Origin: Eledone cirrhosa
Taxonomy: Eukaryota
NCBI GenBank assembly: GCA_964016885.1
Contig: OZ024741.1
Location: forward strand, 156,240,001 to 156,304,000
Reading direction: 5' to 3'
Length of the DNA: 64,000 nt
In this document: positions 6,823-62,537 of the stretch, piece after piece
Layout: the number at the start of each line of letters is the position of its first letter
Numbering within the stretch: position 1 is the stretch's first letter
Notes under the pieces: generated by a model
Database searches by the model: none
What the model was told of the DNA's origin: nothing
Seen by the model: the letters and a program-made list of their open reading frames with translations, nothing else
Translations under genes and position numbers: made by a program

Positions 6823-7341
6823 TGACAATGAAGGTGTAGTAAGGAACCAGATGAACCATAACGCACCAGAGTACTCGATACTTAGGGTAGTAGAGTGGGT
6901 AATAGAAAAAGAGTCAGGACCTCGACGGTTGAGTTCTGGCCGTTTCGACAACTAGATCCGAACTAATCCACCAGTATTAGAACTCTACTACTCTACGTAT
7001 TGAGCCCTCTGGTGTACCATGGTCCACTTGGTATCTTACCACACCTTGGTGTGAGGCGAGCACTGTGAAATCTCGCATGCACTAATTCCAGCTCTTATTA
7101 ATAACTGCATCTGTATTGTATACACACCCATACGCCCACACACACTCATACAGACATGCACGTATACATATTCATATACATATTTATATATATAACAACG
7201 ATGGTGTGATAAGATATCAGGTGGACCATGGTGCAGCAGAGGGCTCAATACTTAGGGTAGTAGAGTTCTAATACTGGTGGCTTAGTTCGGATCTAGCTGT
7301 CGAAACGGCCGGAGCTCAGCCATCGGGGCCCTGACTCTTTT

Positions 7342-7345
<4 letters not shown>
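6823..7345. mobile_element. (TA)n-embedded nested inverted-repeat element (family also at 32296-32340 and 62536-62735)
   Basis: About 6832-6897 is inverted to about 6982-7045; 7200-7345 is inverted to about 6903-7045. Confidence 0.7.
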
Positions 7346-13670: not shown

Positions 13671-14161
13671 CAAAAAGCTGGTGGCATATGATTTAGAATG
13701 AATGAATTCAAGCATCAGTCGAATATTCCTCCCGCTCATTGGTCAGATTCTCACCATTCTAATACTAAATCTATTGAATTGTTAGGTCAGTTGTCCTGGA
13801 ATCAGATCAATTGGCTAGGATTGTTTTTAGCAGCCAACTATAATAACTGTATACACCTAGAAAATAGGGCCGAGTTTTGCCCTAATTGACCTACCTGTAT
13901 TAGTGGCAGTAATGTTAATATGCTCCTACCTCTCCTCGTGTGGGGAGTGGTAGTATTGGAGTTGGTAGTGATTATTTCACGTAGTAAGCGGATATGGCTT
14001 CATTTGGGAATGTGTATGCTTATCAATATTAAGAATCCTGATTGTAAGAGATGTTAAAATTATAATTGTAGGAGTTAAAAATTATAATTCATATTTTAAA
14101 CATATAATACACACCCGCACACACATATCTACATACACGCATACGCACACACAGACAGACA

Positions 14162-14255
<94 letters not shown>

Positions 14256-14264
14256 CATACACTT

Positions 14265-14800
14265 CCAACCTACCAAATCAAAAACAAGAGGTTAAATCCT
14301 ATGTAGGTATGGCGGAAGGTCGGTTTAAGGAACGCTTCTTAAACTATCAGTCGACCTTTGGATACTCGGAAAAACGATCGTCCACGAAACTCGCGAGCTA
14401 CGTATGGTACCTCAAAGACTCAGGCGTAGACTACTCCATCCAATGGAAATCTATCAGTAAGTCAAAGCCATACGCAAGGTGTAATCCATATTGTGGACTG
14501 TGCATTGAAGAAAGGATCAATATCCTGAGGCAATAGGGATTGCCTAAATTCAAGAAATGAGCTATTTTCACGTTGTCCACACGTCTGGAAACACCTCTTA
14601 ATTACAAATATCCAGAGTGAATAACATCAACATTCTAATATTCTGATCAACTGGAATAATTTATTCCGGACATTCGCAGTTATCTCCCTTACATCTTTCG
14701 ACCGTGGGATTATATTTACTCAGACCGAGATGATGATCCGCATAAGGTGAAACATTTGTTCTCGGTATAGTGAACTAACTCTTGTGGAACTACTTCTATA
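14265..14800 (+). mobile_element. 3' fragment of Neptune-type Penelope-like element (GIY-YIG C-terminus + 3' UTR)
   Basis: YVGMAEGRFKERF..STKLASYVWYLK..WKSI..CGLCIEER, then LNSRNELFSRCPH; HHR in the UTR. Confidence 0.85.
14724..14766 (+). ncRNA. Hammerhead motif in PLE 3' UTR (C3 mutated to A)
   Basis: accgag-ATGATGA-t-cc-gcataa-gg-t-GAAA-cattt-GTT-ctcggt; 6-bp stem I. Confidence 0.65.
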
Positions 14801-18404: not shown

Positions 18405-18495
<91 letters not shown>

Positions 18496-18629
18496 AAAGT
18501 CTTATTTAAAATTGTTGGGTTACAACGAGTAAATATTTTATAACTGATATAAAGCACTCAACAAGTTTTGGAGTAGATATACGATATTAAACAAATGGAA
18601 ACTATATTTATAAAATCATATTTATTTCA

Positions 18630-18684
18630 TTATACATATTTCAGGGATACCATATTAAAAATATGGCATGCCTTCTTCAGATAA
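18630..18684 (-). ncRNA. Type I hammerhead motif (family of 25561/25741)
   Basis: Reverse complement reads ttat-CTGAAGA-aggcatgccatatt-ttt-aatatggtatccct-GAAA-tat-GTA-taa. Confidence 0.7.
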
Positions 18685-18897
18685 AATACAATATATAAAT
18701 ATTAGGTATAGGATTACCCAAGATGTAGTAATGGTTAATTACTACACTGGATATGGTTGACGTACGGTGAGAGGTTACTCTACGAGTTATGGAAGAATTG
18801 TTGAAGAAACTTAGTTCCTGATCCTTCTGTATTCCGGAGTGTATATAAAGAATGAATAATAACAGGTAGACATCATAAAAAGGTAATTTATTCCGTG

Positions 18898-19009
18898 TGC
18901 TTACAAATGTTTCCACGGTGGTACTACAGCCTAGTTATGCTACGTGCAAATTTACAAGTATTTGCAGAACTCAAATATCCAATGCTGTGACCATTGTATC
19001 CTCAGCGCA
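18898..19009 (-). ncRNA. Hammerhead with about 85-nt stem II domain
   Basis: Reverse complement reads tgcg-CTGAGGA-tacaatggt...accaccgtg-GAAA-cattt-GTA-agca. Confidence 0.55.
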
Positions 19010-19539
19010 GAATGGTAAAATGTACAATGTAAATACCCTTAAGTGGGGTTGTTGGGGAAGATAGAGTAGAAAAGGAAGAGAGAAAAGTAGGGGAGAGGGA
19101 GAGAGAGAGAATGATATGCAGGGGTTGGAGAAGTAGGAGAGAGTGGTTTGTAGATATCTTAATCAAAATGTTATGGTAGGGGTTTTATTATACTGGTTAC
19201 TTTTGGAGAGATGCGTTGATGGGTAAGGTCGGAATTATTTATTGCCCCAGAGGGCAGGTTCATAGATGTGGAGAAGGGAGGTAGGCCAAAGGCGAGAGAG
19301 AGAGAGTGTAATGGATGTAGAGAGAGAGGTAGAGAGGGGACAGACGAAGTTTATGTGGTGAGTGAACTTTGGGTTTGTAGTAGTAATCTGTGAATTGCAC
19401 TGAGTTACCCTTTATAGTGATAAGCAGTGTATTGTCTTGTAGTGTGGGGGAAGAGAAGGTGGTTAGCTAGAAAGCGATGTTATAGTTACGGGTTCGAATG
19501 TTAAGTTATTTTATAGTGGGAGAATTTAGCTTTTAGTTT

Positions 19540-20594
19540 GTGGTTGCAGTATAATGATCGTTCAATTCTATCGTTAAGTAGTTTGTTTTTGGATTTTAAT
19601 ATGTAAAAGAGTTCAAAGTTACATAACCTGCAGTACTTCAATCCACTCCGATATGCACTTGCGCTGGAAAGTATATCCCATTTTAGGTGAACTGTTGGTT
19701 GCGTTCACGGAGTTGCCAGGTCTTGTTGGCGAGCGTGGTCACAAAACGGTGATTAGGATGTTTGATTGAGAATCGATGACGGTACCAGCGAGATTTAAAC
19801 GAGGTGGTGGTAGATCCGATATAATACCATTTCTGGTCGTTCGATTCAACCGTGCATTGGTAAACAATGTTGGACTTCAGGCATTCATTCTTCAATGGAC
19901 ATCTTTCGGGTAGATGGCAGTTACATTCTTTGTTGTGGGTAGCGGGTATACCATGGATAGGTTGTGATAGCGGTACAGGTGGATTGTGTAATACCCATCT
20001 CCCATTTAGTGGTTGGGAGGCAGATATTACGTTCTGCCCATCTGTTACTAAAATGTTTTGTTTTGTAGAGTTGTTTAATTGCCTTAAGTTAAGTTTTTTT
20101 ATGTATGCTTCAAGGTTTGGTGCCGTGGAGTATGATAGTCTAATAGTTTTAGAGTTCAGAATTTTGCTGTATTTATGGGAACTAGGGAAATGTTTGTTGA
20201 TTAACTTAAAGAATGAAAGAGATAGTTTTGTACTAATCGAGGCATTAAATATAGGATTGTACCAGATATACTTTCTCCAACGTGATTTATTTTTTCTGTT
20301 ATTAGTATGTCTGGTAGTACTGTGTGTGCGCGCTTGTATTTTAATCCTCCGGTTACGTATTCCTTGATTTCGTGTAGAGCTATGTGAGTTATGGAAATTC
20401 CTATCAATGTATTCTATTGTATCCCGGTGGTCGGCCTTTCTTAATGCATTATTGTAGTATTCAGCGTGTTCACTAAAAATATCAGAGTTAGACGATAGGC
20501 GAGAGATTCTAAGAGAAATACTCCGGGGAACTGATTTGATCATGGAGAGTGGGTGGTTTGAGTTAAAGTTAATATACGTAAGGTTCCCATTCAT
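19540..20594 (-). pseudogene. PLE RT thumb + Cys linker + GIY-YIG endonuclease (truncated, stop at 19683)
   Basis: YINFNSNHP..ISRLSSN, WYNPIFN, CNC..CPL..CLKSNIVYQCTV..YIGSTTTSFKSRWYRH; continues past the stop as WDIL..CRLCNFE..LLNDRIE. Confidence 0.9.
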
Positions 20595-20650
20595 CTTGTA
20601 AGCACACGGAATAAATTACCTTTTATGATGTCTACCTGTTATTATTCATT

Positions 20651-20688
<38 letters not shown>

Positions 20689-22429: not shown

Positions 22430-22845
22430 ATTATTAATAATAAAGGGCGGTGGATTGTCAGTATCGGTAGAGGGTTGGACGCCATGCTTTCCAGCATAGT
22501 TATGTCCCTTTACGATCTGAGTTCAAATCCCGCCGAGGTTGACTTTGCCTTTCATCCTTACGGGGTCGATAAAATAAAGAACCAGTAATGCACTGAGTAA
22601 TTGCTGGCCTTGTGCCTAAAGTAGAAACAATTATTAATAATAAAGGGCGGTGGATTGGCAGTATCGGTAGAGAGTCGGACACCGTGCTTTGAAGCATAGA
22701 GTTACGTCCCTTTATGATCTGAGTTCACATCCCGCCGAGGTTAACTTTGCCTTTCATCCTTACGGTGTCGATAAAATAAAGTACCAGTAATGTACTCGGT
22801 AATTTCTGGCCTTGTGCCAATAGTAGAAACAATTATTAGATAATA
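22430..22845 (+). mobile_element. Tandem pair of tRNA-head/Deu(Nin)-domain SINEs, about 199-bp period
   Basis: GAGTTCAAATCCCGCCGAGGTTGACTTTGCCTTTCATCCTTACGGGGTCGATAAAATAAAG occurs twice with minor changes. Confidence 0.85.
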
Positions 22846-23131
22846 AAGCCTTTCTAGAGCTTTTGTAATATAACATTCACATTTACAAGTTGGTGGTTGG
22901 AACGTGCCTTATCAAAGCTTCGTATATAAAATCATGATAAAAGGGTTTTAATAAATATAGACAATGTAATCCATTCGACACCGTACTAAGAATAAAGACA
23001 CTCTCTATGATTTTCAAATAATTTTGAAACATAATCAAGAATTTGGAGTAATATAATGAAATACTCTAAACATTTATTCTCTATGAATTCTTCACAAATG
23101 ATTTAAAATGAGATGTTCGATACACACGTAA

Positions 23132-24166: not shown

Positions 24167-24214
<48 letters not shown>

Positions 24215-24297
24215 GTTATTCCGGGTTGAATCGGAGGTAACCACAGTAAGTAAGGTACTCAATACATAGCAGAGTATAAAAGTTTTAATATAGATGA

Positions 24298-24346
24298 GAT
24301 TCTACAGGACTAGAACTGTTTCATTCGTTAGAAATCATCAGGAATC
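24298..24346 (-). ncRNA. Canonical type I hammerhead ribozyme
   Basis: Reverse complement reads gattc-CTGATGA-tttctaacgaat-GAAA-cag-ttctagtc-ctg-TA-gaatc. Confidence 0.85.
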
Positions 24347-24965
24347 TGGGTATCAAAAAATAAAAATGGTATTTATAGGTCTCTACAAGTGGTAGGAGAG
24401 GGTGGGGAGTGGGATGGGTGCAGGCCATTGGTTGATTGAAAAGGGAATTCATTAAAAGCTAATTCTACAAAGCTATAGTTTATTTTTATTTATTTATGTT
24501 TTTAGAGTAACAAGGGCAGACAGAGTTCTATAAACAGGTTCCGGATGGCATACCATTCCTTGTCATTAAGTTTCTCTTAAGCTAACAGATGTCTATAAAA
24601 TCAGTGGGGGTCAGTCATGGTCGATAGAATTAAAGAAAAGGGAGATTCTTTAAAAGCTAAAAGAATCTCCCCTTTCTTTAATTCTATCGACCATGACTGA
24701 CCCCCCACTGATTTTATAGACATCTGTTAGCTTAAGAGAAACTTAATGACAAGGAATGGTATGCCATCCGGAACCTGTTTATAGAACTCTGTCTGCCCTT
24801 GTTACTCTAAAAACATAAATAAATAAAAATAAACTATAGCTTTGTAGAATTAGCTTTTAATGAATTCCCTTTTCTATCAACCAATGACCTGCACCCATCC
24901 CACTCCCCACCCTCTCCTACCACTTGTAGAGACCTATAAATACCATTTTTATTTTTTGATACCCA

Positions 24966-25014
24966 GATTCCTGATGATTTCTAATGAATGAAACAGTTCT
25001 AGTCCTGTAGAATC
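24966..25014 (+). ncRNA. Canonical type I hammerhead ribozyme
   Basis: gattc-CTGATGA-tttctaatgaat-GAAA-cag-ttctagtc-ctg-TA-gaatc; GUA cleavage triplet. Confidence 0.85.
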
Positions 25015-25371
25015 TCATCTATATTAAAACTTATATATATATATATATATATTTAATACAATAACAGAGATAGTTTAAAGCTAAACTCTGACTGGTAACC
25101 ATCTCACTCAACAAACATTAGGTTATATTAAAATATAAACCCAATTTAAGTTTTTGGGGTGCTAACAATATGTATAATGTGGAAAAACCAGTTGTATTAT
25201 TTTATGAGATATAATTAAAGTTAAAGTATATCTCTCTTTCCAAACAATTGTTTCATTATAAGTTTTCTACAAGTTTGGGAGAATGTTTCCAGTTTATGTA
25301 GAAGCCTAATATATATCCATGTAAGAATATATTTAGATGGGCACTTATAAATCTTCAGTGGAAGCCCATTA

Positions 25372-25429
<58 letters not shown>

Positions 25430-25430
<1 letters not shown>

Positions 25431-25843
25431 AAAGTTATATTTAAATTGTTGGGTTACACCTAGTAAATATTTATAACTGATATAAAAGCACTCAACAAGT
25501 ATTTGGAGTATATTTACGATATTAAATAAATGGAAACTATATTTATAAAACCATATCTATTTCATTATATATATTTCAGGGATATCATATTAACAATATG
25601 TTATGCCTTCTTCAGATAAAATACAATATAGACAGTTTTATAGATAAATAGATTTGACTGCCAAATCAACTTTTTCAAATACAAGTCGATGTTGAACGGT
25701 ATGTCAAATCTATTTATCTATAAAACTGTCTATATTGTATTTTGTCTGAAGAAAGCATAACATATTGTTAATATGATATCCCTGAAATATATATAATGAA
25801 ATAGATATGGTTTTATAAATATAGTTTCCATTTATTTAATATC

Positions 25844-25846
<3 letters not shown>
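25430..25846. repeat. Fold-back with left tail; HHRs at 25561-25620 (-) and 25741-25800 (+)
   Basis: Arms about 25516-25658 / 25703-25846; CTGAAGA..GAAA cores; same family as 18495-18700. Confidence 0.88.
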
Positions 25847-25904
<58 letters not shown>

Positions 25905-25907
<3 letters not shown>

Positions 25908-26746
25908 ATAAACGGAAAAAATGAAACGAAATTTCATTTCCCACTCTTAGTACGGCTGTTACTTAAATATAAGTATGTACACGTACATACATATATGTAT
26001 ACAGACGTACAGTAGTATGTATATATATATACATACATGCACACATATATATATGTACGTATAGATTCACCGAACATTTATTATAATGCTCGGTGTGTTT
26101 GTCAACAAACATCCCGTATTAAGCCGTAGTGTCTAGCAACCATCGTTGCTCGTTTGTTCAACACTGAGAAAGGAACGCTGTACTAGTTTCAAGCTTATTA
26201 GCTATCGTCAACAATGTATACCTTCCTGCCAGATTGTTGAACATATATACTTACCTTATGCATATTAACGGCTGAGTAGCCCTATTTGCATATCGAGTGG
26301 GTTAATCGGCCGGGTGCACTGTTACTTATATTTAAGTAACAGCCGTACTAAGAGTGGGAAATGAAATTTCGTTTCATTTTTTCAGTTTATCGTTTTCGGT
26401 GCACCCGGCCGATTAACCCACTCGATATGCAAATTGGGCTACTCAGCCGTTAATATGCATAAGGTAAGCATATACGTTCAACAATCTGGCAGGAAGGTAT
26501 ACGTTGCTGACGATAGCTAATAAGCTTGAAGCTAGTACAGCGTTCCTTTGTCAGTGTTGAACAAACGAGCAACGATGGTTGCTAGACACTACGGCTTAAT
26601 ACGGGATGTTTGTTTACAAACACACCGAGCATTATAATAAATGTTCGGTGATTCCATATGTACATGTATATATGTGTGTATGTATGTATATATATATATA
26701 CATACTACTGAACGTCTGTATACATATATGTATGTACGTGTACATA

Positions 26747-26750
<4 letters not shown>
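25905..26750. mobile_element. Two inverted, circularly permuted copies of an about 422-bp HHR monomer
   Basis: TACTTATA at 26323 and 26745 bound the + copy; the - copy starts in a different register; HHRs at about 26177-26215 (-) and 26503-26541 (+). Confidence 0.8.
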
Positions 26751-26839
<89 letters not shown>

Positions 26840-27606: not shown

Positions 27607-28039
27607 ACACACTCACATATTCTCCCTCACTTACAGGCAAGAGAAAATACAAGATATTGTAAAACAAAGTTTGATTGCTCCCCCGGGAAGGTTTCCGAAA
27701 TAATACATTCTTGACAGCACACAGCAAGAGAAACACTTAATAAATACATCAACGGCACAATAACAACAACTAAAATAACAACAATCCCCAACACCAACAG
27801 AGACAGAGCTACGATATCGAACTACAACATACAGCGACAACTACAGTAACAACAACGATAAAGTCAAATCCATAATAAGAAGAAAATTATTAAACTAAAA
27901 CAACAACATACAACACACAACTAGAACTACAATAAGCACGACAACAAAAACGATCTCAACAATAACAAAAACATACATTATAGATAAAATAACAAGCACG
28001 ATCTCAACACGCACACATAACAAACAACACAAACACAAC

Positions 28040-31000
28040 GACAACACACATACAGCAACAGCACACAACTCCAATAACACCACAAACAGCAACAGCCAAC
28101 ACAACAACACACAACTCCAATAATACCACAAACGAACAACAGCCATCACAACAACAACACAACACCAATAACACCACAAACAAACAACACCCAACACAAC
28201 AACACACAACTCCAATAACAGCACAAACAAACAACAGCCAACACAACAACAACATAACCCCAATAACACCACAAACAAACAACAGCCGACACAACAACAC
28301 ACAACTCCAATAACACCACAAACAACAACAGCCAACACAACAACAGCCAACACAACAACAACACAACTCCAATGACACCACAAATAAACAACAGCCAACA
28401 CAACAACACACAACTCGAATAACACCGCAAACAAAAACAGCCAACACAACAACAACACAACTCCAATAACACCACAAACAAACAACAGCCGACACAAGAG
28501 CACACAACTCCAATAATATCACAAACAACAACAGCCAACACAACAACAACACAACCCCAATAACACCACAAACAAACAACAGCCAACACAAGAACACACA
28601 ACTCCGTTAATATCACAAACAAGAACAGCCAACACAACAACAAAACAACTCCAAGAACATCACAAACAACAACATTCAACACGACAACAACACACAACTC
28701 CAATAACACCACAAACAAACAACAGCCAACACAACAACACAACTCCAATAACACGACAAACAGCCAACAGCCAACACAAGAACACACAACTCCAATAATA
28801 TCACAAACAACAACACAACTCCAATAACATCACAAACAACAACAGCCAACACAACAACAACACAACTCCAATAACATCACAAACAACAACAGCCAACAAC
28901 AACACAACTCCAAGAACATCACAAACCACAACAGCCAACACAACAACAACACAACTCCAATAACACCACAAACAAACAACAGCCAACACAAGAACACACA
29001 ACTCCAATAACGTCGCAAACAACAACAGCCAACACAACAACAACACAACTCCAATAACACGACAAACAAACAACAGCCAAGACAAGAACAACACAACACC
29101 AATAAAACCACAAACAAACAACAGCCAACACAAGAACACACAACTCCAATAATATCACAAACAACAACAGCCAACACAACAACAACACAACTCCAATAAC
29201 ACCACAAATAAACAACAGTCAACACAAAAACACACAACTCGAATAACACCGTTAACAACAACAGCCAACACAACAAAAACACAACTCCAATAACACTACA
29301 AACAAACAACAGCCAACACAACAACAACACAACTCCAATAACACCACAAACAAACATCAGCCAACACAACAACAACACAACTCCAATAACATCACAAACA
29401 ACAACAGCCAACACAACAACACAACTCCAATAACACAAACAACAACAGCCAACACAACAACAACACAAGTCCAATAACATCACAAACAAACAACAGCCAA
29501 CACAACTACAACACAACTCCAATAACACCACAAACAAACAACAGCCAACACAAGAACACACAACTCCAATAATATCACAAACAACAACAGCCAACACAAC
29601 AACAACACAACTCCAATAACACCACAAACAAACATCAGCCAACACAACAACACACAACTCCAATAACATCACAAACAACAACAGCCAACACAACAACAGC
29701 ACAACTCCAATAACACAAACAACAACAGCCAACACAACAACAACACAAGTCCAATAACATCACAAACAAACAACAGCCAACACAACTACAATAACACTAC
29801 AAACAAACAACAGCCAACACAACAACAACACAACTCCAATAACACGACAAACAAACAACAGCCAACACAAGAACACAACACTCCAATAATATCACAAACA
29901 ACAACAGCCAAAATAACAACACAACTCCAATAACATCACAAACAACAACAACAGCACAACTCCAATAACATCACAAATAACAACAGCCAACACAACAACA
30001 ACAGAAATTCAAATAACATCACAAACAACAACAGCCAACAACAACACAACTCCAAGAACATCACAAACAACAACAGCCAACACAACAACAACACAACTCC
30101 AATAACATCACAAACAAACAACAGCCAACACAACAACATAACTCCAATAACATCACAAACCACAACAGCCAACACAACAACAACACAACTCCAATAACAT
30201 CACAAACAAACAACAGCCAACACAACAACAACACAACTCCAATAACACCACAAACAAACATCAGCCAACACAGCAACGCACAACTCCAATAATATCACAA
30301 ACAACAACAGCCAACACAACAACAACACAACTCCAATAACATCACAAACAACAACAGCCAACACAACAACAGCACAACTCCAATAACACAAACAACAACA
30401 GCCAACACAACAACAACACAAGTCCAATAACATCACAAACAACAACAGCCAACACAACTACAATAACACTTCAAACAAACAACAGCCAACACAACAACAA
30501 CACAACTCCAATAACACGACAAACAAACAACAGCCAACACAAGAACACACAACTCCAATAATATCACAAACAACAACAGCCAAAACAACAACACAACTCC
30601 AATAACATCACAAACAACAACAACACAACTCCAATAACATCACAAATAACAACAGCCAACACAACAACAACAGAAATTCAAATAACATCACAAACAACAA
30701 CAGCCAACAACAACACAACTCCAAGAACATCACAAACAACAACAGCCAACACAACAACAACACAACTCCAATAACATCACAAACAAACAACAGCCAACAC
30801 AACAACACAACTCCAATAACATCACAAACCACAACAGCCAACACAACAACATAACTCCAATAACATCACAAACAAACAACAGCCAACACAACAACATAAC
30901 TCCAATAACATCACAAACCACAACAGCCAACACAACAACAACACAACTCCAATAATATCACAAACAAACAACAGCCAACACAACAACACAACTCCAATAA

Positions 31001-31160
31001 CATCACAAACAACAACAGCCAACACAACAACAACACAACTCCAATAACATCACAAACAACAACAGCCAACACAACAACACAACTCCAATAACATCACAAA
31101 CCACAACAGCCAACACAACAACAACACAACTCCAATAACACAAACAAACAACAACAAAAA
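28040..31160. repeat. AC-rich satellite, about 42-48-bp unit
   Basis: ACAACTCCAATAACA(T/C)CACAAACAACAACAGCCAACACAACAACAAC repeated over about 3.1 kb. Confidence 0.95.
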
Positions 31161-31650: not shown

Positions 31651-31693
31651 TACCCTTTAGGCAAATAAATGACATCATTATTGTTATTATTAT

Positions 31694-31875
31694 AGGGCGG
31701 TGGATTGGCAGTATCGTTAGAGGGTCGGACGCCATGCGTTGACGCATAGAGTTATGGCCCTTGCCATTCTGAGTTAAAATCCCGCCGAGGTTAACTTTGC
31801 CTTTCATCCTTACGGGGTCGATAAAATAAAGTACCAGTAATGCACTGGTAATTGCTGCCCAAATGTAGAAACAAT
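31694..31875 (+). mobile_element. tRNA/Deu-domain SINE
   Basis: Close match to 22643-22835. Confidence 0.85.
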
Positions 31876-32337
31876 TATTGTTATTATTATAGAATTCATA
31901 AATAAAGAAAGCATTATTATAGAATTCATGATTGTCGAAATTATTGTTATTCGTTATACGTTTATTCATGGGTTTTTGTTATTATTGTTATTAACATCTA
32001 TATGAATACTCATTATTTTGGATAATTGCTGGCCTTGTGCCAAACGTAGAAACAATTATTTTGCTATTAGTTTTTTTTTATTTAGCTTGGTTTCGTCATG
32101 GCTTGCTTGTATGCAGCATCTCACAGACAGAGAAATAACAACATATATATATATATATACATACATGCACACAAGTATACACACATGCAGGCACACACAC
32201 ACACACATATATACACACGCACGCATACACACACACGCACGCACCCACACACGCGCGCGCGCGTGCGCGCATGTATATGTATGTATATCTGAAAAGATTC
32301 AGGACCCCAAAGGCTGAGCTCGTGCCGTTTCAACAGC

Positions 32338-38610: not shown

Positions 38611-40818
38611 CAACGTAAACTCCGTTCCACTTATTCTAGTAGGCTTTTATATTTATATGTGAGCTGATAGAGTACTGTCTAAGGATTTACAGAAACCCAT
38701 GAAGCTAGATTTAACACCTTTCTAGTGGGTCCGGGTATGATTTTACATTCATTTAAATTATTGACGTATTGTTTTATTGATATTTTTTATCTGTTTGGCC
38801 CGAATCTTCCTTTATCGATTTTAAATCGTATGGTTGATTGTAGACTTGTTCTATATGTGACGGTATTTTAACGATAGTTATAGCTCTGATTCATCTGAAT
38901 TATTGAGCCCTCTGCCGCTCATATCGAATTTCGTTTTTCGTGAACTCGTGCGCCGATTTTTCGATACTCGATCTTTCTAATATATTTAGCTCTGGACATA
39001 GCTATCCACCAGTTAATTTTATTGCTCATTTTTTGTCGATTCTATTGAGTGATGAATAGCTTTTGTTTTATTTTAACATGTCTATTGAGCACTCTAATTC
39101 GATATGTGTATTTCCACATTCACTCGAATTGTTTTCGCGGATATAGGGGTCATCTCCCTTGTCTAATGCCATGTGCGTTTTTCACCGCTAGTTGACTCCT
39201 TTGCCGCCAGGATAAAACTCGTTGACAACGTAAACTCCGTTCCACTTATTCTAGTAGGCTTTTATATTTATATGTGAGCTGATAGAGTACTGTCTAAGGA
39301 TTTACAGAAACCCATGAAGCTAGATTTAACACCTTTCTAGTGGGTCCGGGTATGATTTTACATTCATTTAAATTATTGACGTATTGTTTTATTGATATTT
39401 TTTATCTGTTTGGCCCGAATCTTCCTTTATCGATTTTAAATCGTATGGTTGATTGTAGACTTGTTCTATATGTGACGGTATTTTAACGATAGTTATAGCT
39501 CTGATTCATCTGAATTATTGAGCCCTCTGCCGCTCATATCGAATTTCGTTTTTCGTGAACTCGTGCGCCGATTTTTCGATACTCGATCTTTCTAATATAT
39601 TTAGCTCTGGACATAGCTATCCACCAGTTAATTTTATTGCTCATTTTTTGTCGATTCTATTGAGTGATGAATAGCTTTTGTTTTATTTTAACATGTCTAT
39701 TGAGCACTCTAATTCGATATGTGTATTTCCACATTCACTCGAATTGTTTTCGCGGATATAGGGGTCATCTCCCTTGTCTAATGCCATGTGCGTTTTTCAC
39801 CGCTAGTTGACTCCTTTGCCGCCAGGATAAAACTCGTTGACAACGTAAACTCCGTTCCACTTATTCTAGTAGGCTTTTATATTTATATGTGAGCTGATAG
39901 AGTACTGTCTAAGGATTTACAGAAACCCATGAAGCTAGATTTAACACCTTTCTAGTGGGTCCGGGTATGATTTTACATTCATTTAAATTATTGACGTATT
40001 GTTTTATTGATATTTTTTATCTGTTTGGCCCGAATCTTCCTTTATCGATTTTAAATCGTATGGTTGATTGTAGACTTGTTCTATATGTGACGGTATTTTA
40101 ACGATAGTTATAGCTCTGATTCATCTGAATTATTGAGCCCTCTGCCGCTCATATCGAATTTCGTTTTTCGTGAACTCGTGCGCCGATTTTTCGATACTCG
40201 ATCTTTCTAATATATTTAGCTCTGGACATAGCTATCCACCAGTTAATTTTATTGCTCATTTTTTGTCGATTCTATTGAGTGATGAATAGCTTTTGTTTTA
40301 TTTTAACATGTCTATTGAGCACTCTAATTCGATATGTGTATTTCCACATTCACTCGAATTGTTTTCGCGGATATAGGGGTCATCTCCCTTGTCTAATGCC
40401 ATGTGCGTTTTTCACCGCTAGTTGACTCCTTTGCCGCCAGGATAAAACTCGTTGACAACGTAAACTCCGTTCCACTTATTCTAGTAGGCTTTTATATTTA
40501 TATGTGAGCTGATAGAGTACTGTCTAAGGATTTACAGAAACCCATGAAGCTAGATTTAACACCTTTCTAGTGGGTCCGGGTATGATTTTACATTCATTTA
40601 AATTATTGACGTATTGTTTTATTGATATTTTTTATCTGTTTGGCCCGAATCTTCCTTTATCGATTTTAAATCGTATGGTTGATTGTAGACTTGTTCTATA
40701 TGTGACGGTATTTTAACGATAGTTATAGCTCTGATTCATCTGAATTATTGAGCCCTCTGCCGCTCATATCGAATTTCGTTTTTCGTGAACTCGTGCGCCG
40801 ATTTTTCGATACTCGATC

Positions 40819-40826
<8 letters not shown>
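38611..40826. repeat. 615-bp tandem repeat, about 3.6 apparently identical copies
   Basis: CAACGTAAACTCCG at 38611, 39226, 39841 and 40456; (TA)n at both ends. Confidence 0.97.
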
Positions 40827-40858: not shown

Positions 40859-43800
40859 TAGCATTAAAGACCGGTGTTGCTCGGGGTCAGTAAGTTACCA
40901 AAGTTAAGTTGCACCACCCATTTTATGGCAGCATTTTTTTGTCTGCCAGGCACTGGTTGAATGAATTGCAAACCTGCACTGGCGAACAGGAGCTGCGCCA
41001 GCAGTGACAATTGTAGTTTCGCCTATTGATATTATCTCTGTGCAAAGAAGTGCTCAAATTTATTGTTTCACAGTACTTGCGCAACACGCGCGTAGACGAT
41101 GCCAGCCGAACAACAGAGCTGCGATGGAGTTGTTCTGCATGACATGTTTTAACGGGAGAGGGGCGGATTGAGGGAACCGCAAACTGGGGCCTGAAAACAT
41201 TGTCGAATTATGACAACCAAAAAAGAGGAAGAGGGATCATTGTATGGTTGGTGCATCATGTACGTCGGACGTAGAAGATGAGCCTGCGGCTGTGCCGACG
41301 GAGGGAGGGAAATAGAGCTGGGTGGAGGCCAGGTGTTGGTGAAGTGTGAAGTAATTGCAGGGAACCGCGTAAAAATCTAAATCCCGTCATTAAAGCATTG
41401 TTGACCCTTTGAGAGTCGTACGGAGGTGAAATACTAACCTGTCCACCGTCCTCCGAGGCCCACCAAACGGGGGTTGGTGAGGAGCAACAGCTGATATTTG
41501 AGTAGGGTCGGAGTTGCAATGAAGTTTTGTAACGCCGCGAGAATCAGCCTTTGTACGGCAGATGGTGGGTAGTGTCCAGTGCACTGCAGTGAAGGTTAAC
41601 CTACTTAGAAAGTACTCACGAAAAGGCAAAAAATAAAAAAATAAAAAATGTTATAAAATTAGGAATCAAGGTAATCCTATAAAACCTCCTTGTACATAAA
41701 GTTTTTTTTGTTTTTCCTTGCGGAACGAACGCGAAATCATCACTCTTGCTGCCGACACGCGAGCAGCCATTAAAGCTGACCATGAGAGAAACACGGCTCC
41801 CCCAAATGTATTCCCGCGACAGACAGTGTTTGTCCCTGCGCTTTGTTAATTGACATTGCGAAGCATGGCTTGACCGGGAACTGGGACCTCCGAAATGTGA
41901 GAGGTAGGTCTGTTCCTGATGGGAAAAGATGCATCCTCGGTATGAGCACAAACTTGCCCCGACCACACCCTGTGATTATCGTGGCCTCAATCAGATTGGG
42001 AGCTAAGGACTTAACGACCAAACGTGTGCCATTGCATTGTTTCGGCGGAACCAAATTTCGAATGAGCATTATAGGGGCACCAACTTTAAGTTTCAAAATG
42101 TGTGGGGGTAATCCGAGGGGCTCAAAGGAATTTAGTACCTCTATTGGATAGTTGATGACGCCCTCGGGGTCAGGAGTTCTATCGATAGACTTATATACGT
42201 AGCCATCCCCAGGAATGAGTTTTAGCATTTGATCATTAATATGGTTAACAGTTTTATTCCTCGGGGCCAGAATAGCCCTTTGGCCAAGCCAATCCATATT
42301 CTGATAATTTGCTTGGAGATCTGGGAACACTGCATCCCTGAGATCAGAAGGCGTACTAACAACGGTACAAAGTGATTCGATGGCAATATTACCCTTTTCA
42401 TCCCCGGGCGTTTTGCCTTCGCCAAGTGCAAGGATGGTGTGAGAAAATGCTGCTGATGTGATATCACCTCGCATATGAGCACGCATGTTAGTGTGAAGTT
42501 TCAGAGTCTTCACCAGGGGCCACAATGCAGATGACTTAAGACACGCACGTACTGCATCAGCTATAGTCCCCTTGGGAATAACGGGAAGCGTTTGCCTGAA
42601 TTCCTCTGAAAGAAGAAGTGTTATGCCTCCCATTGGAGCCGTAGAGTCTTTGATATCTCTCAGAGTTCTATCGAACGCCTCAAGAGCACCTCTGTGGGCC
42701 ATCGTGCATTCGTCCTTCTGTTCGCCTAATCTTAGCTAATATTAATTTGGTGACAAAAGTCTTCCCAGTCCCCCCAGGAGCGTCCAGGAAAAAATCCCCC
42801 CAGCTTTTCCCCGGACAGAATTAACAACGGAGTTGTAAGCGAATTTCTGTTCTGAAAGGAGCTTTGGCTCATTCTCTGCTATGTACTGGGAAAGCTCGTC
42901 AACATTATAAAATGTCTCACGCAGCAAATCCGAAGACAGAGTGTTTGCACATTCCCGGTTTGTTGAAGGTAGGCCATACACAGCTAACGCACTACCGCCC
43001 ATATCGAGAACAGTATCTTCGATTTCAAGCAGCGCCCTGTTGTAAATGAGGTAAAATGGGTTTAGCAACTGAGCGTGACGCAGGAAATCTTCAGACATGT
43101 AATCTTTGTAGCTAAACCATAAAGAGGCCGGATCACCCAAGTCACACCATAGGAGTAGAATAGCGAAAAGCGATCTAGTCTTTTAGGAGATTTCAATAAA
43201 ACGCCCTCTGCCATAGTGGCGCCCCATTGTGAATCATCCTCCAAAAGGTCACGTCTAAAGCAGGCTTCCCGGAAAGTATCACATAATTCACCGTCAACAG
43301 TTCTTATGTCTCGAAAGCTTTGTGGACCAAAAACCTCATGGAGAAGAAGGCGCAGGTGAAAACACTCATGCTGGTTGGGAGGTGTAGTGTACACTCTTCC
43401 TAGACAACTGTCAAACTTGACACCAGGATGTCCTTCAACATCCTGACCTGACTTCCTACGCACCCAAGTGTTGTTGGACCACACGTAGTAGGACGGGACC
43501 TGAGGATATGAAAGTGTTTTTGCAAATGTGTCAAGTTGGCAAAGCGTAAAACAAACAGTCAAATTTGTTTCTTTTGGATTGGCCGCCAAATGAGCAGCAG
43601 TCTGTTCAGTAAAGTAAGCCCGCTGGCCGTTTTCCAAATGAACCGCTAGTTGTATGATGGCGGGGTGCCTTTGGTGAACTGGAAACCCAAATATCCGCCA
43701 AAAAGCTTCACCCCTGCTGATATATCGATCTGCCAAGTACTCCGAGACCTCGTCCCTGCTATTGTCGTTTTGAAGGCCGAACATGGCAGCGTCGGAACCC

Positions 43801-46800
43801 TTGTTAACATATTTACATATGTACTTTATCGACTTCACTGAATGACAGAACTCCACATTTATATGAGCGTTGAAGGTTTTCATCAGAAATGGACAGTACG
43901 GGACCACCCACCTATTATCAATTTGATGACCCCGTAACGTCATAGTGAATCCACCGTTCTCAGGCCGCCTTCGTCTGTACAGTGGGTATCCGTCGCCGCC
44001 GGTCTGGGTCTCCTCAACAAACCTCTTTGGGTATCGTTTAGTGCACACATGGTCCTTGTGGCATGAGGAGAACTCTTGAAAACCGGGTCCGCACGGACCG
44101 TGCACCATGTGTGCCTTCACAATGTCGTACAGCTGCCGGTCAACAACGGGGTCCGGGATTTCCGCTGCGATGACGTCATCTATAACTGTAGGGTCTATTT
44201 TGGTGACCAACCAAACCAAAATGTGCGCGTGTGGCAACCCTCTCTTCTGCCACTCAACAGTATACATGTGGCACCTTAGAGGCCCGAAAACCTTCCCTTT
44301 TTTTATTAGATCAATTAGGTTAGCCAGCTTCTGCCTGAAACCCCTGGCAATAATATCATGCTGATGGCAGTACCTCTGCCCTGGGATAAGTTCCCGCGTA
44401 ACCTCAACCCACTTGGGCTTACACGTAAACGTGATGAATAACTCGGGGCGCCCATAATGCCGAACGAACGTCATAGCGTCCTGTGTTCGCTCGTGCATGT
44501 ACCGCGCCCCCTCCCCGTATAGGTTGAGGGGAGAATGCACATTTTGCCGATGTTCGCGGGGTCAGTGTCATTCCTGATGCCGTCACGCAAATGGATGTAG
44601 GAGTCTGAGCGCAGCTGCTTCTGATTCAATTTTATGAAGCACAGTCTCTCCGACTCCATCTTTGCAGCCATGTCAATTGCAAACTGGTGAAACAGTTCTC
44701 GTGACCTGTGCAGGGTGCTGAAATCGTTAGGCCTCGTCATGAAGCGGTATGAGTATAAAGCCATGCATGAAACAGCTTTAGATGTTGCAGCAGTGGGCTC
44801 GTTTGGTTTGCGCTGAGGAATGCCGAAATGGTACCCGTCTATTCCGTATGCAAAGAGAACGGGATACTGCAGGGCGTCGTATGAACGATGCGTCTCATTA
44901 ATACGTCGAAGACCACTGTCACGACTTTGAAGAACTATGTCTTGCTTATTGTGCTGTTCATCATGGATAACTACGGCCACTTCATTGCACGAAGGAGCGT
45001 TATAACAGCGTGCGTGCTCCCCAGAAAGTCTTTTGTCAGCATCGATGACAATGGTGAAGTTTGGTGAAGGATGTGTTTCGAATGCGTATTTGAAACTGCG
45101 AATATAACTGTTGTGCTCATGAAGCATGTTTTGAAGATCGAGCAGCACGTCCCTTTCAAAAGTGTCAGCGTCAGTGTTTGCATGTGTTGGAATAACGCCG
45201 AACCACGCATCAACTTGCCTACTGTAGTTAGAAATGAAGTAAATTTGAAGGAACGAAGGCTTGCAAGATGGTACACCTGCCCCTGGACCTTGAAAGTAGG
45301 CATCCAACCACTTTCTCTGACAACGTTAGCCCCGAAAGAAGTTATTTGAAACGCACAATTGTACTTCCTGATGAGTTGAAGGAATTTGGATGACCTTGAG
45401 GTAGAACCAGTAAGTAGTTCCTTCAAAGGCTCTGGTGGTTCCCCAAGAGGGGGCAAGCTAACCTTACCGTTTAAGCAGCACATTGCAGGTGGTTCCGAAC
45501 CCACTTTTTAGCATTGCAGAATTTGCAATTGAAGCGCATTTCCCGTATATTTATGTCGGCACGCATCGAGTAGTTAACGTTGGGCTCATACTTGAAAGCC
45601 CGTAGGTGCCAGTATGGGCTGTCGGAGCTCGTCACACCGTGGGCAGCTTCTTGTCGTCGACTGGTCCGCTCCAACGTAGAATGTTGCTCCTGTGGGTCGT
45701 GGGAAGCTCTCGCAGCAGTAGCAGAAGTCACCCTTGCAATCCTAGTGGAGCGCCCGTCTGCATCTTCAGAAGCCATGGAATCAGTCATAGCCGCAGCGTT
45801 CCTAGCAAGGCGATTCATCCGCCGTTCCAAACCTTCCAAAGCCCTGGAAGCAGCAGTAGCCGCACTGTTTCTATTCAGGCGAGTCGACCTTTGTTCCGGG
45901 CTCTCTGAAGCCCTGGAAGTAGCAGTAGAAGCGTTTTTGGGGGAATGACGTATCCCCCGCTCCGAATCGCACATCGCAGCACGTCTCGAGGCGTCGTATG
46001 AAGCCATCTTGACTAGGCGTGCGGTGCGGTGTTGAAAACTTTCAGCAGCTCTGCATTCCGCTGAACGGAAGGCGCTCTGTGAAAGTCTTAAAGCAGTTTC
46101 CTCGGGGGGTTCGTTTGCTGTAATCGCCCTCTGCGCCGCCGCTGACGCAGTATGGCGACCGAGGCGACTTCTCTTTTTATGTGGCATTGTATGTGAAAAA
46201 GAAAGGGTGAAAGTTACTTCTACAGCAAAATTGCCTTTGAAAGTGTAAGGGTGAAAACTGTCTGCGTTCCGCAGGTGAAAAAATGGGAGAACGAACGGTT
46301 AATAAATAACTCACAGTTTGTTGAAAGCGCGCTTCTGTCAGCAATTTGAAGTTGTTTGGCCAAAAATCTCTATTTGTTTGTTTTTTTCACTCAATAAACG
46401 TGTAAATATGTTATAAACAAAATGTAATTGTGTGTGAGCATGTATTTTTTTTTTTTTGAATAGAGAGAGGAAATTATTTCCGTAATTGTGAGTGATTTTG
46501 AAATAAATAAATAGTCGTTGATCTAAGTTAGACCATTTACAACATTCTTACAGAGGCAAATAAATAACTCACAGTTTGTTTAAAGCGCGCTTCTGTCAGC
46601 AATGTGAAGTTGTTTGGCCAAAAATCCCTATGTGGTTTTTTTTTCACTCAATAAACGTGTAAATATGTTATACACAAAATGTAATTGTGTGAAATTATTA
46701 AGGAGTGGGTTTATAAACGTATATAAGAGATGTAAGCGTCATGTATTTAACGTTTGTCTCTGTCTCTGACTCTCTGGCTACCTCCTTTATTTTCTCTCTC

Positions 46801-47105: not shown

Positions 47106-47548
47106 TGTCGGGTCACTCTTGAGAGCTACTGGTAACATGTAACCCAGTACAACCTGTCGCAAGGTCGGATTGTCGGCGATTAAACCGGCGACCTCACCAA
47201 GTTACTTGGTGAGGAGGGTGATTTTGGACACCCTGCAAGACAAAAAGCAAAACCTGACAAAGGGCGGAAGAACTCATAACAGTCAACGGCCATCCAAAAG
47301 TGTGTAAATATGTATATACACATGGACATATGTATGTATATGTATATGTGTATATACATGGCTGCATGTGTGTGTATATGCGCAGGGGCATAGAAATAGT
47401 CGGGCTGGACACCCGATCGCGCGGTTAGACCACTGGGAGTGAAGGACCCCTAGCCTTTGTCGGGGCATTCTTCTAGGAGAAGGCAACTCAGGAAACTGGA
47501 ATAACTCCGATATAAAACCTGCGGGTCAATAGTTACCGATGATGTTGA
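47106..47548 (+). mobile_element. RTE-type 5' region fragment interrupted by a microsatellite
   Basis: TGTCGGGTCAC..GCTACTGGTAACATGT..CCCAGTACAACCTGTC and CTAGGAGAAGG match the reverse strand of 57300-57600. Confidence 0.65.
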
Positions 47549-47562
47549 TATATATATATATA

Positions 47563-48057
47563 TAAATGTAAGTATGTATGTATACGTACATACATGTATG
47601 TATACAGACGTACAGTTGTATGTATATATATACATACATGCACACATATATATATGCACGTATCGGTTTACCGAACATTTATTATAATGCTCGGTTTGTT
47701 TGTTTGTAAACAAACAAACAGCCCGAACGCCGTACAGTGTTTAGGCAACCACGTCACCTTTTTGTTCAACACTGACACAGGAACGATGTACTAGTTTCAA
47801 GCTTATTAGCTATCGTCAGTATCGTATACCTTTCTGCCAGATGGTTGAACGTCTGAAAGTATATACTTTCCTTATGCATATTAACGGCTGAGCAAGCTAA
47901 TTTGCATATCGAGTGAGTTAGTCGGCCGGGCGCACCGAAACGATAAATGGAAAAGAATGAAACGAAATTTCATTTCTCACTCTTAGTACGGCTGGTACTT
48001 AAATGTAAGTATGTATGTATGTTTGTAAACAAACAAACAGCCCGAATTACGCCGTAC
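47563..48057 (-). mobile_element. About 437-bp HHR monomer with terminal redundancy (family of 25905)
   Basis: TAAATGTAAGTATGTATG at 47563 and 48000. Confidence 0.8.
47784..47824 (-). ncRNA. Type I hammerhead, intact core
   Basis: Reverse complement reads cgata-CTGACGA-t-agct-aata-agct-t-GAAA-cta-GTA-catcg. Confidence 0.8.
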
Positions 48058-48437
48058 ATTTATTGGTCGGTGACGCGCGTTTCGCCACTGATCAGCTCAA
48101 TGTTCGATCTGTATCTATCTTACCCGACTCTATAATCGGCAGCTCGACGGACCCTATGCTAGTAGATAATGAATATTCATTTTCTACTAGCATTTTAAAG
48201 GGTACGTCGAGCTGCCGATTATAGAGTCGGGTAAGATAGATACAGATCGAACCTTGAGCTGATCAGTGGCGAAACGCGCGTCACCTACCAATAAATGTAA
48301 TGAAGGAGTAACCAATCGTCCTTGTTATCCTTTCAATATATTACACTCTGTATAGCTCTACACCTCAACACAGAAGTGAATCTAAACACCGAGTGCTCAC
48401 CCGGGTGAACCTGCAGTAACTCCAAGTTACACTGCCT
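48055..48437. repeat. Fold-back (48055-48155 / 48199-48299) with internal hairpin and right tail
   Basis: Reverse-complement arms; central ATGCTAGTAGA..TCTACTAGCAT; contains GAAACGCGCGTC. Confidence 0.88.
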
Positions 48438-51540: not shown

Positions 51541-51547
<7 letters not shown>

Positions 51548-52409
51548 GAAAGGTATAGAAAACACTGCAGCGAAAAGCCAAGACCATTCCATAATATATA
51601 AGTGACTATAGCGTCTAAATGGGAAAAATAGTTAACGTAAGATGTGGGAAAAATAATTCAAACTCATCTCAAAGAGAATCAGGATATAAATTCATCCACA
51701 GAATTTAGTGAAATCCAGGGAAAAATCATAGAGCCTTAACTCATGATAAAATAAAGTTTAAAATACTTATCCTTCAATTTGGAAAAACTTTAAATGCTCT
51801 GTATAGTCTTAAAGACTATTTCATGAAAACTTTCAGTGGAGATGGTCACGGTTGGAATTCAATCCTCAGCAGAGCTCAACTCGATAACCAGGATTCTCAC
51901 AGATTTATATGCCAAAAGGGAATTTTAAAACAGGTTAGTTTACCATCATGCGTGATTATGAAAAACGCACATGAGGAAAGACATGGCTAGTGACGTCAGA
52001 ATGAGATGAATGATTGTTTACAAGAAACAACAGTCAAAAACATTCCGAAAATTACTCTACAAAAGGAGTTCAGCAAAAAGCAATATTATCGCAGTTTTTT
52101 ATTAAAAAAACCGGGATTAGTCACAAATAATTTAAGCACTCTAGGAAAAAAATCCGAGTATAAATATATAAATGAAAGGTATAGAAAACACTGCAGCGAA
52201 AAGCCAACAGCATTCCATAACATATAAGTGACTATAGCGTCAAAATGGGAAAAATAATTAACGTAAGATGTGGGAAAAATAATTCAAACTCATCTCAAAG
52301 AGAATCAGGATATAAATTCATCCACAGAATTTAGTGAAATCCAGGGAAAAATCAATAGAGCCTTAGCTCATGATAAAATAAAGTTTAAAATACTCATCCT
52401 TCAATTTGG

Positions 52410-52412
<3 letters not shown>
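51541..52412 (-). mobile_element. 626-bp HHR monomer, about 1.4 tandem copies
   Basis: AATGAAAGGTATAGAAAACACTGCAGCG at 51545 and 52171; (TA)n flanks. Confidence 0.85.
51796..51875 (-). ncRNA. Type I hammerhead with full stems
   Basis: Reverse complement reads gctctg-CTGAGGA-ttga...tcat-GAAA-tagtct-tta-agacta-TA-cagagc. Confidence 0.8.
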
Positions 52413-52750: not shown

Positions 52751-52754
<4 letters not shown>

Positions 52755-53696
52755 AGATAAGCAGAACAAGTAAAATTCAACCAATTTTTCAAAATAAATC
52801 AAAATTAATATACAATTAAAATTAATCAAAATTAAAAAATATAATATAAATATTTACCTATTCAAATGGCCCTAACTGTACAGTTTCACGGTGCAAAACA
52901 TTAAATATCACGAGGATATTAATGGAAAAGCAACGATCATCAGAGAAGCATTTTCCTGTCCTAGGGTTAAAAACCCCAGGAACCACAAAATATATGACCT
53001 CACTCCAACTAATACAGGTCTAAAAGGTCGTGAAAGTGACCCGTAAATACATTGGTGTATAGTGAAGGCGGGAAATCGTAGACTCGCCGTCTATAATCGC
53101 CACTAAAAAAAAAATTTTTAGTAACTAAATAGAACGACAAATTTTTATCTCTACATACTGGAGATTATTGAATAAGGTTAATATATATCTGAGGGTACAA
53201 TGTACCCCCGGAAATATATAGTGTGTCTATGATTTAAGGTGGTTCTATGGTAATAATTTGATATACCAGAACTTAATATCAAGATAAGCAGAACAAGTAA
53301 AATTCAACCAATTTTTCAAAATAAATCAAAATTAATATACAATTAAAATTAATCAAAATTAAAAAATATAATATAAATATTTACCTATTCAAATGGCCCT
53401 AACTGTACAGTTTCACGGTGCAAAACATTAAATATCACGAGGATATTAATGGAAAAGCAACGATCATCAGAGAAGCATTTTCCTGTCCTAGGGTTAAAAA
53501 CCCCAGGAACGACAAAATATATGACCTCACTCCAACTAATACAGGTTTAAAAGGTCGTGAAAGTGACCCGTAAATACATTGGTGTATAGTGAAGGCGGGA
53601 AATCGTAGACTCGCCGTCTATAATCGCCACTAAAAAAAAAAATTTTTAGTAACTAAATAGAACGACAAATTTTTATCTCTACATACTGGAGATTAT

Positions 53697-53699
<3 letters not shown>
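52751..53699 (-). mobile_element. 527-bp HHR monomer, about 1.8 tandem copies (HHRs 52869-52949, 53396-53476)
   Basis: ATCAAGATAAGCAGAACAAG at 52751 and 53278; CTGATGA..GAAACTGTACAGTTA on -. Confidence 0.88.
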
Positions 53700-54762: not shown

Positions 54763-55350
54763 GTGTAAGGTTAATATATCTGAGGGTACAATGTGCCCCC
54801 AGAAATACATGGTTGTCTATGATTCAAGGTGGTTCTATGGTAATAATTTGATATACCAGAACTTAATATGAAGATAAGCAGAACAAGTAAAATTCAACCA
54901 ATTTTTCAAAATAAATCAAATTAATTTACAATTAAAATTAATCAAAATTAAAAAATATAATATAAATATTTACCTATTCGGGTTGCTCTTACTGTACAGT
55001 TTCACTTTGCAAAACATTAGATATCACATGGATATTAATGGAAAAGCAAAGATCATCAGAGAAGCATTTTCCTTTCCTAGGGGTAAAAACCCCAGGAACG
55101 ATAAAATATATGACCTGACTCCAACTAATACAGGTCTGAAAGGTCGTGAAAGTGACCCATAAATACGTTGGTGTATAGTGAAGGCGGGAAATCGTAGACT
55201 TGTTGTCTATGTTTGCCACCCAAAAAATAAATTTTTAGCAGCTAGATAGAACGACAGAGTTTTTTCTCTACATAATCGGAGAATAAAGTGTAAGGTTAAT
55301 ATATCTGAGGGTACAATGTACCCCCAGAAATACATGGTTGTCTATGATTC

Positions 55351-55354
<4 letters not shown>
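54762..55354 (-). mobile_element. 525-bp monomer of the same family, about 1.1 copies, different start register
   Basis: AGTGTAAGGTTAATATATCTGAGGG at 54762 and 55287. Confidence 0.88.
54984..55066 (-). ncRNA. Type I hammerhead, extended stem II
   Basis: Reverse complement reads tgcttct-CTGATGA-t-ctttgc..hairpin..gcaaag-t-GAAA-ctgtaca-GTA-agagca. Confidence 0.82.
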
Positions 55355-55574: not shown

Positions 55575-55677
55575 CACGCGCACACGCATACACACACACA
55601 TTATATATATATATACATGATGGCTGCTCCCTCGTTATCGATTATGGCCATTGCACGAGGAAAAAAAACATAATAAT

Positions 55678-62472: not shown

Positions 62473-62533
<61 letters not shown>

Positions 62534-62537
<4 letters not shown>

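Follow-up and report, generated by a model that had tools for sequence, protein, structure and literature searches.

Metazoan non-LTR retrozymes, as described in the available parts of Cervera and de la Pena (2020, PMC7229834) and of a 2026 preprint by Li, Clavereau and Pollet (bioRxiv 10.64898/2026.07.22.740005), are non-coding units of 150-450 bp with a GC content below 45%. They carry a type I hammerhead ribozyme with a 6-bp stem I and a weak palindromic helix III, have a strongly self-paired fold and a high copy number, and co-exist with Penelope-like elements (PLEs). They are defined by tandem repeats of at least 2 units, and solo monomers have been described and, in the preprint, counted. 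In coral, mussel, and axolotl, retrozyme RNA is reported to be largely circular in vivo (PMC7229834). A circular template for copies longer than one unit was proposed for PLEs in 2014 (PMC4209133) and for retrozymes in 2020 (PMC7229834), again in the parts available to us. The preprint argues that animal retrozymes are non-autonomous and derive from PLEs, and leaves the mechanism open. PLE mobilization of animal retrozymes has so far been argued from co-occurrence and pLTR similarity, and the available sections of the two retrozyme papers describe no inverted arms, tails, or fixed start sites.

PLE insertions have an anatomy of their own. In the accessible sections of Craig et al. (PMC8557442), PLEs are found as partial tandems with an inverted truncated copy and a bias toward (TA)n, and have a tail of 30-40 bp, often at one end only. 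Arkhipova et al. (PMC3846280, also available in part) identify the tail on one of two inverted pLTRs as the start of the next unit and report palindromes at the PLE junction. The part of Frangieh et al. (PMC11167929) available to us equates the tail, in vitro, with the stretch between two internal start sites, describes both strands as cut and extended, and gives uncut multi-copy RNA as the main substrate of the anole PLE.

The window analyzed here is a stretch of 64,000 nucleotides of animal-type DNA that is AT-rich and has numerous (TA)n tracts, and it contains three copies of a repeat family of about 430 bp. We number the family on the 422-nt unit of copy B, with position 1 at 26329 and the ribozyme strand as the plus strand. 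Copy A (25908-26319, minus strand) is an inverted arm that covers unit 71-422 followed by 1-62, or 414 of the 422 nt, and its 3' end lies at what we call the second start site. Copy B (26323-26753, plus strand) is the main arm and reads unit 417-422, 1-422, and 1-3(6), which is one unit plus 9 nt. Copy C (47563-48020, minus strand) consists of a 437-bp unit and a 21-bp terminal repeat (47563-47583 and 48000-48020); on the unit it runs from about 402/413-422 through 1-422 to 1-6, with the 3' register of B. Identity to the B unit is 397/412 aligned letters for A and 386/429 letters for C, and BLAST E-values are 2e-101 between B and C and 4e-66 between A and C. These alignments bear out what the initial annotation had read from the sequence, namely three homologous copies of a 422-437-bp monomer (422 in B, 437 in C), 2 of them inverted and circularly permuted relative to each other, with a shared sequence block at the 3' end of A and the 5' end of B.

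Copy C had also been described as terminally redundant, which is correct for the 21-bp repeat; the last 37-40 bp of the stretch then assigned to it (to 48058) are instead an extra piece 5' of the copy. This piece (48017-48058, minus strand) corresponds to unit 262-297, duplicates 47694-47736 with 3 additional nt, and is joined across a long TA-rich hairpin. The 3-nt difference was considered as a test of one circle versus 2 units and dropped, since a later deletion may account for it. A 245-bp fold-back of another family (48055-48299) abuts copy C, and its outer 8 letters are the end of C.

After simple-repeat masking, the region 25900-26760 matched only itself and 47667-48011 in a self-search of the window, and probing the window with the doubled unit at higher sensitivity brought up no additional fragments of the family. 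The window holds no tandem or dimer of the 430-bp family, a point on which the reading of the initial annotation is not supported.

The ends of the copies follow a simple pattern. In the copies the unit end runs into the unit start. All 3 pass through the ribozyme cut site (unit 209/210), and their lengths fall between 8 nt short of one turn and 21 nt past it. The 3' ends of B and C are at most 3 nt apart, at (TA)n, while the 3' end of A is 56-59 nt further on, and each of these 2 registers abuts (TA)n: 25845-25907 to the left of A, a tract common to a neighboring fold-back of another family; 26749-26830 to the right of B; and (AT)8 at 47547-47562 at the 3' end of C. Both 3' ends show TA microhomology. 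The final 2 letters of the left (TA)n flank are a private change, TA standing there in most other records. Since B and C share a register, there are 2 registers and not the 3 that had been proposed. The stretch of A past the 3' ends of B and C, its "tail" (25908-25966, minus strand; unit 4-62), is identical in sequence to the start of B. At the inversion junction (26319-26342, plus strand) a hairpin with 10-bp arms includes 3 letters (26320-26322) that do not belong to the unit and by which its 6-bp hairpin is lengthened.

Arms A and B differ at 15 sites and by one 2-nt gap. Among the best 36 variable places inside A, 6 are private to A (at least 99% of the depth in public run X1 has the letter of B), and at the remaining 30 places A and B agree at 29, even where their letter is the minority one. 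Eight further A/B differences look private to B, with A agreeing with C, and the private changes are split about evenly (6-7 in A, 8 in B). The shared letters indicate that the two arms hardly differed when they were inserted and that they do not go back to independent nested insertions, the alternative that the initial annotation had set against its own reading. The idea that one arm was copied from the other by snap-back was rejected: B has unit 63-70, which is absent in A, and A has the run from 422 to 62, which is absent in B. Neither arm is thus a snap-back copy of the other, and 2 cDNAs were made. The 3-letter extension of the junction hairpin is of the kind that a self-primed fill-in would leave, although 3 letters are weak evidence for it. 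Only the shortness of the unit, which lets one arm extend as far as its own start, makes the permutation visible.

In copy B a type I hammerhead occupies 26494-26549 on the plus strand (core 26507-26537; predicted cut after 26537, unit 209), with stem I, a UAU/U internal loop, and an outer helix. Each of the copies in the window has one defect: A15.1G in B, a private C3U in A (core 26181-26211, minus strand), where a stem I pair is broken, and an A.C pair that adjoins the core and closes stem I in C (core 47789-47819, minus strand). The core of C had been called intact, which is true of its core letters and not of this pair. None of the 3 window ribozymes is fully intact. Core and closing-pair changes of this kind reduce hammerhead activity.

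Membership of type I was judged by the core CUGANGA...GAAA...UH together with 3 helices. With a structure descriptor, 8 type I cores were detected in the window, among them those of B and C, against 0 in every one of 10 block shuffles; A was missed, its C3 being restored by the read majority (C3 is present in 99.9% of X1 depth). Stem I has 6 bp, stem II is short and opens with U.U, as at the stem II base of axolotl HHR_Amex2 (PMC7229834, in the part available), and helix III, whose loop is palindromic, is a single pair. Independent support comes from a metagenome contig, L001: when it is compared with A, B, and C, each of the 6 stem I pairs is altered on both of its sides, and 53 of 56 cells are paired, compared with 25-50% in slid controls; the comparison has four sequences only, and L001 contributes most of its signal. 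In 4 of the 4 aligned sequences the UAU/U internal loop and the loop 2 of six letters (NAAUAA) are kept while stem I changes; these loops would be the partners in the loop 1-loop 2 tertiary contact of canonical type I ribozymes. Among the best 40 of 144 differences in the reads, those in the ribozyme fall at N7, in loop 2, and in stem I (one pair) and its outer helix, and other core changes are possible beyond those 40. Among the rows listed (35 low-scoring rows of one search lay beyond the listing), Rfam gave no hammerhead match by gathering score or E-value at any threshold tried, nor one on L001, and its output contained only low miRNA-type matches to TA-rich hairpins. The missing Rfam match weighs against a routine hammerhead label. 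Judged by core and helices, the family is predicted to carry a canonical-type I hammerhead.

The exact 29-nt ribozyme motif had 0 occurrences in metagenome contigs and 0 in viral contigs, and a looser pattern found one metagenome contig, L001. Its likeness to the family is limited to the 31-nt core, of which 29 letters are identical; its stem I, which lay outside the search pattern, has a different sequence and is fully paired. L001 (1-1153) is non-coding, with a 78-nt terminal direct repeat (92%, period 1075), a type I hammerhead at 753-783, and TAACCC-type repeats at about 846-860, after the hammerhead. It is possibly a larger retrozyme-like unit of another organism.

The 422-437-bp unit is non-coding. 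Its longest stop-free frame is 53 codons in the doubled unit, and the ORF with reverse transcriptase (RT) and GIY-YIG endonuclease of an autonomous PLE is absent. With 422-437 bp and a GC content of 0.37-0.38 it falls within the retrozyme range (about 150-450 bp, GC below 45-50%, non-coding), and it is like the metazoan retrozymes in its type I hammerhead with a 6-bp stem I, weak palindromic helix III, and U.U pair, in its strongly self-paired fold and high copy number, and in its co-existence with PLEs. We do not file it as a proven retrozyme, which would take tandem units and a circRNA, and call it putative and retrozyme-type: the element behaves like a retrozyme and inserts like a PLE. What is new here is the PLE insertion footprint on a retrozyme-type unit; the kind of element is already known. 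The family itself may already be catalogued, for instance in Repbase. A full-text literature search that covered few subscription papers returned no paper on retrozyme insertions with tails or inverted arms, and the available parts of PMC13282606, PMC6962438, and PMC8490949 likewise add nothing on this point.

The 430-bp family is very abundant in public reads. Some words of copy B occur in 20 of the 24 listed runs and half or more of them in 3 runs, and the runs with a word share of at least 0.22 span 7 coded organisms; the 6 RNA or guessed-RNA runs (X15-X20) hold only 0.04 of the words and carry no evidential weight. Four runs were aligned to copy A with 18 nt of flank, yielding 10,592 contigs in X1, 142 contigs in X9, 6 contigs in X4, and 76,061 of 12.47 million raw RAD reads in X23. 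By its size X9 might be an RNA run, and it was treated as one of unrecorded kind. Piles of read ends at 25933 and 26284-26286 coincide with a 4-letter restriction-type site and were ignored.

At position 25906, in the TA flank, plain TA stands in 827 of 1005 X23 reads (151 starts) and in 96 X1 contigs, so the joint between (TA)n and unit 62 recurs. The end of A is also found in 4 X9 contigs, and 3 X4 pieces at this end cover only 25890-25934; all counts at this end are upper bounds, as unrelated AT-rich records can align there. The recurrence of this end indicates a fixed site. The B/C end is represented by 194 reads from 7 starts and by one X9 contig. Both junctions are also read through: unit 71 continues to unit 62 in 1153 reads from 118 starts, 938 of them with the 8 letters of B in between, and 24,183 reads of a variant subfamily continue across the B/C-end junction. 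One X4 contig spans both junctions, which implies that copies longer than one unit exist unless the contig is a merged path; the presence of arrays is beyond short-read resolution. Among the best 15 of 68 joints (alongside the best 24 of 536 loose ends), 5 other inversion joints have one arm that ends at unit 125-195, beyond the cut site, and meets unit 14-17 in 4 cases and unit 63-71 in one, with 1-5 read starts each. Unit length is therefore no rule for the arms.

The A+B insertion has the features of a PLE-type insertion, with an inverted 5'-truncated copy, a one-sided tail, a junction palindrome, and a microsatellite target, and this anatomy fits the PLE insertion scheme point by point. 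It is like that of endonuclease-bearing PLEs (Penelope/Poseidon, Neptune) in its (TA)n targets, in the head-to-head inverted copy with a junction palindrome, in a tail on one side only that has the sequence of the next unit's start, in the 2 internal start sites beside stem-loops, and in the hammerhead within the repeat. It differs from them in having no ORF, a unit of 0.43 kb where PLEs have 3-4 kb, a tail of 56-59 nt where 30-40 have been published, and a canonical-type hammerhead where that of PLEs is minimal. The same asymmetry is seen in other fold-backs of the window, 8 of the 10 examined having one arm at most 2 nt from (TA)n and the other 67-166 nt away. In 4 of those fold-backs the extra is family sequence found elsewhere, and 2 of these families have ribozyme cores. 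This lopsided back-to-back form in TA repeats suggests, by analogy, that the element borrows PLE enzymes. An abundant short unit with a PLE tail and inverted arms provides insertion-level evidence on the mobilization of animal retrozymes.

The explanation that we consider probable is that of a non-autonomous, retrozyme-type unit of about 430 nt, copied by a PLE endonuclease and reverse transcriptase from 2 fixed start sites. A PLE enzyme would nick (TA)n, and cDNA synthesis would start at one of 2 RNA sites, either the loop of a small hairpin (unit 3-6) or unit 62. If both cut ends served as primers, 2 cDNAs would result head to head, one of them with the 56-59-nt tail (A and B); if one cut end did, copy C would result. 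The template RNA would continue from the unit end into the unit start, through the ribozyme cut site. An autonomous partner with the family's ribozyme, and likewise a link to the pLTR of an autonomous PLE, were looked for in the window, viral contigs, and metagenome contigs, and none was found.

Since all copies cross the cut site, the template should be either a religated circle or an uncut tandem transcript. We put the chances of a ribozyme-cut, religated circle, as judged from sequence, at about even, and an uncut tandem transcript is a serious possibility of slightly less than even probability. The circle is favored by the closeness of all 3 copies to one turn and by the mostly circular RNAs of comparable retrozymes, and disfavored by the role of uncut RNA as main substrate of the anole PLE. 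The inferred circular template that the initial annotation had put forward keeps part of its force: the family has no ordinary fixed left or right end, both junctions are crossed by many reads, A and B stem from one template variant, and the cut site is crossed by every copy. The registers are not free, however, as the 2 3' ends recur 56-59 nt apart, and this geometry is the known PLE tail, expected equally from a linear tandem transcript on the available part of PMC11167929. The circular-template model predicts more-than-unit copies across the cut site, as seen here, but was offered, in the accessible parts of PMC4209133 and PMC7229834, for head-to-tail tandems, whereas these copies cluster near one turn and have 2 fixed starts. 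The 5 read joints bear on the question from both sides. Their positions at unit 14-17 (four) and 63-71 (one) are just short of a turn from a start site if the arms are long, which lies beyond short-read reach, and count for a circle; the inverted arms are often much shorter than the unit, which counts against it, and hairpins located at the joints might halt the enzyme whatever the template. Fold energies are about equal for linear (-140.7 kcal/mol) and circular (-136.7 kcal/mol) RNA, and the opposite strand folds well too (z -6.3 and -5.1), so fold energy was rejected as evidence for a circle.

A more specific proposal, which we regard as doubtful, is that the family is the genome footprint of a retrozyme circRNA that was copied by a PLE enzyme from 2 fixed starts and on which the enzyme stalled after one turn, just before or past its own primer. 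If true, it would account for A (start at 62 and stop at 63-71), B and C (start at 3-6 and stop at 402-417), the 4 joints at 14-17, and the one at 63-71, and it would settle both the mover of animal retrozymes and the circle as template. With a unit of only about 430 nt, thousands of whole insertions should be mappable, and a circle versus an uncut multimer is therefore computationally testable.

A reading of the copies as truncated pLTR pieces from an autonomous PLE, with no separate mini-element, is improbable. Such pieces would show the same insertion geometry, and most PLE hammerheads are solo truncated copies (PMC4209133, in the part available). However, the unit closes on itself in 422 nt, as seen in the 1153 reads that join 71 to 62 with about 8 letters between, there is no coding frame, and the 6-bp stem I and short stem II are unlike the minimal PLE ribozyme. 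We give still less credence to the strict form of the earlier reading, in which a circular RNA is primed at arbitrary TA-like places and yields many registers. It would account for 3 copies near one turn and across the cut site and for the TA microhomology at both 3' ends, but B and C share a register, the end of A recurs in many records, and the TA-richest part of the unit (324-412) contains none of the three ends. An origin at the DNA level, in which parts of a tandem satellite were cut out as DNA circles or transferred during repair at fragile (TA)n, is just as improbable: permuted near-unit copies would also be expected from DNA circles and the TA microhomology is compatible with it, yet it leaves the 2 fixed ends of one strand polarity, the one-sided tail, and the conserved ribozyme unexplained, and the window has no array. 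An assembly or chimera artefact at the fold-back is scarcely credible, for although inverted repeats beside long (TA)n assemble poorly and no listed contig spans the stretch, the arms carry 15 differences and a 2-nt gap with private changes on both sides, and copy C, at a distance of 21 kb, has diverged by 10%.

Other PLE-related remains are present in the window. A decayed PLE-like insertion between (TA)n tracts (18493-20653) has an endonuclease-type frame at 19683-20615 (minus strand), a terminal repeat with a hammerhead at 18680-18631 that belongs to the family of the fold-back 25429-25842, and a 59-bp inverted piece at 20596-20653. By Atlas features (0.96; 27% of members with GIY-YIG and 55% with HTH_animal) the frame is a PLE-type endonuclease remnant, and Pfam gave no match for it. 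A short frame at 14108-14536 resembles, by eye, a remnant of a GIY-YIG endonuclease, also with no Pfam match. Fold-backs of 3 other families lie at 25429-25842, 24214-25031, 6824-7343, and 62533-62733, each with one arm at (TA)n and an extra of 67-90 nt on the other; the first 2 have hammerhead cores, and 25429-25842 uses the same (TA)n tract as copy A.

A second family with a unit of 525-527 bp is found at 52752-53698 and 54763-55354 (1.8 and 1.13 units, (TA)n on both sides). It has a hammerhead-like core with a long stem II on the minus strand. On the unit, the starting points of its two insertions are some 108 nt apart, and where one insertion has its far end the other has its near end. Two further repeats have (TA)n on both sides: a 615-bp unit in 3.6 copies that are 100% identical (38613-40824), with no hammerhead core by the patterns used, which is either a very young insertion or a collapsed assembly, and a 626-bp unit in 1.38 copies (51545-52411), with only a weak core-like match at 51869. 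The window also contains a Helitron remnant in several frames at 41770-46298 on the minus strand (Helitron_like_N, E 1.8e-33; PIF1 helicase, E 6.2e-23), a 65-bp tandem array at 1434-2320 (13.6 copies, 95%), and a 3-kb AAC-rich array of a 47-bp repeat with strong strand skew at 28020-31157. A dispersed 200-bp repeat, SINE-like by eye, occurs at 22430-22848, 31674-31884, and 55660-55861, once as a head-to-tail pair.
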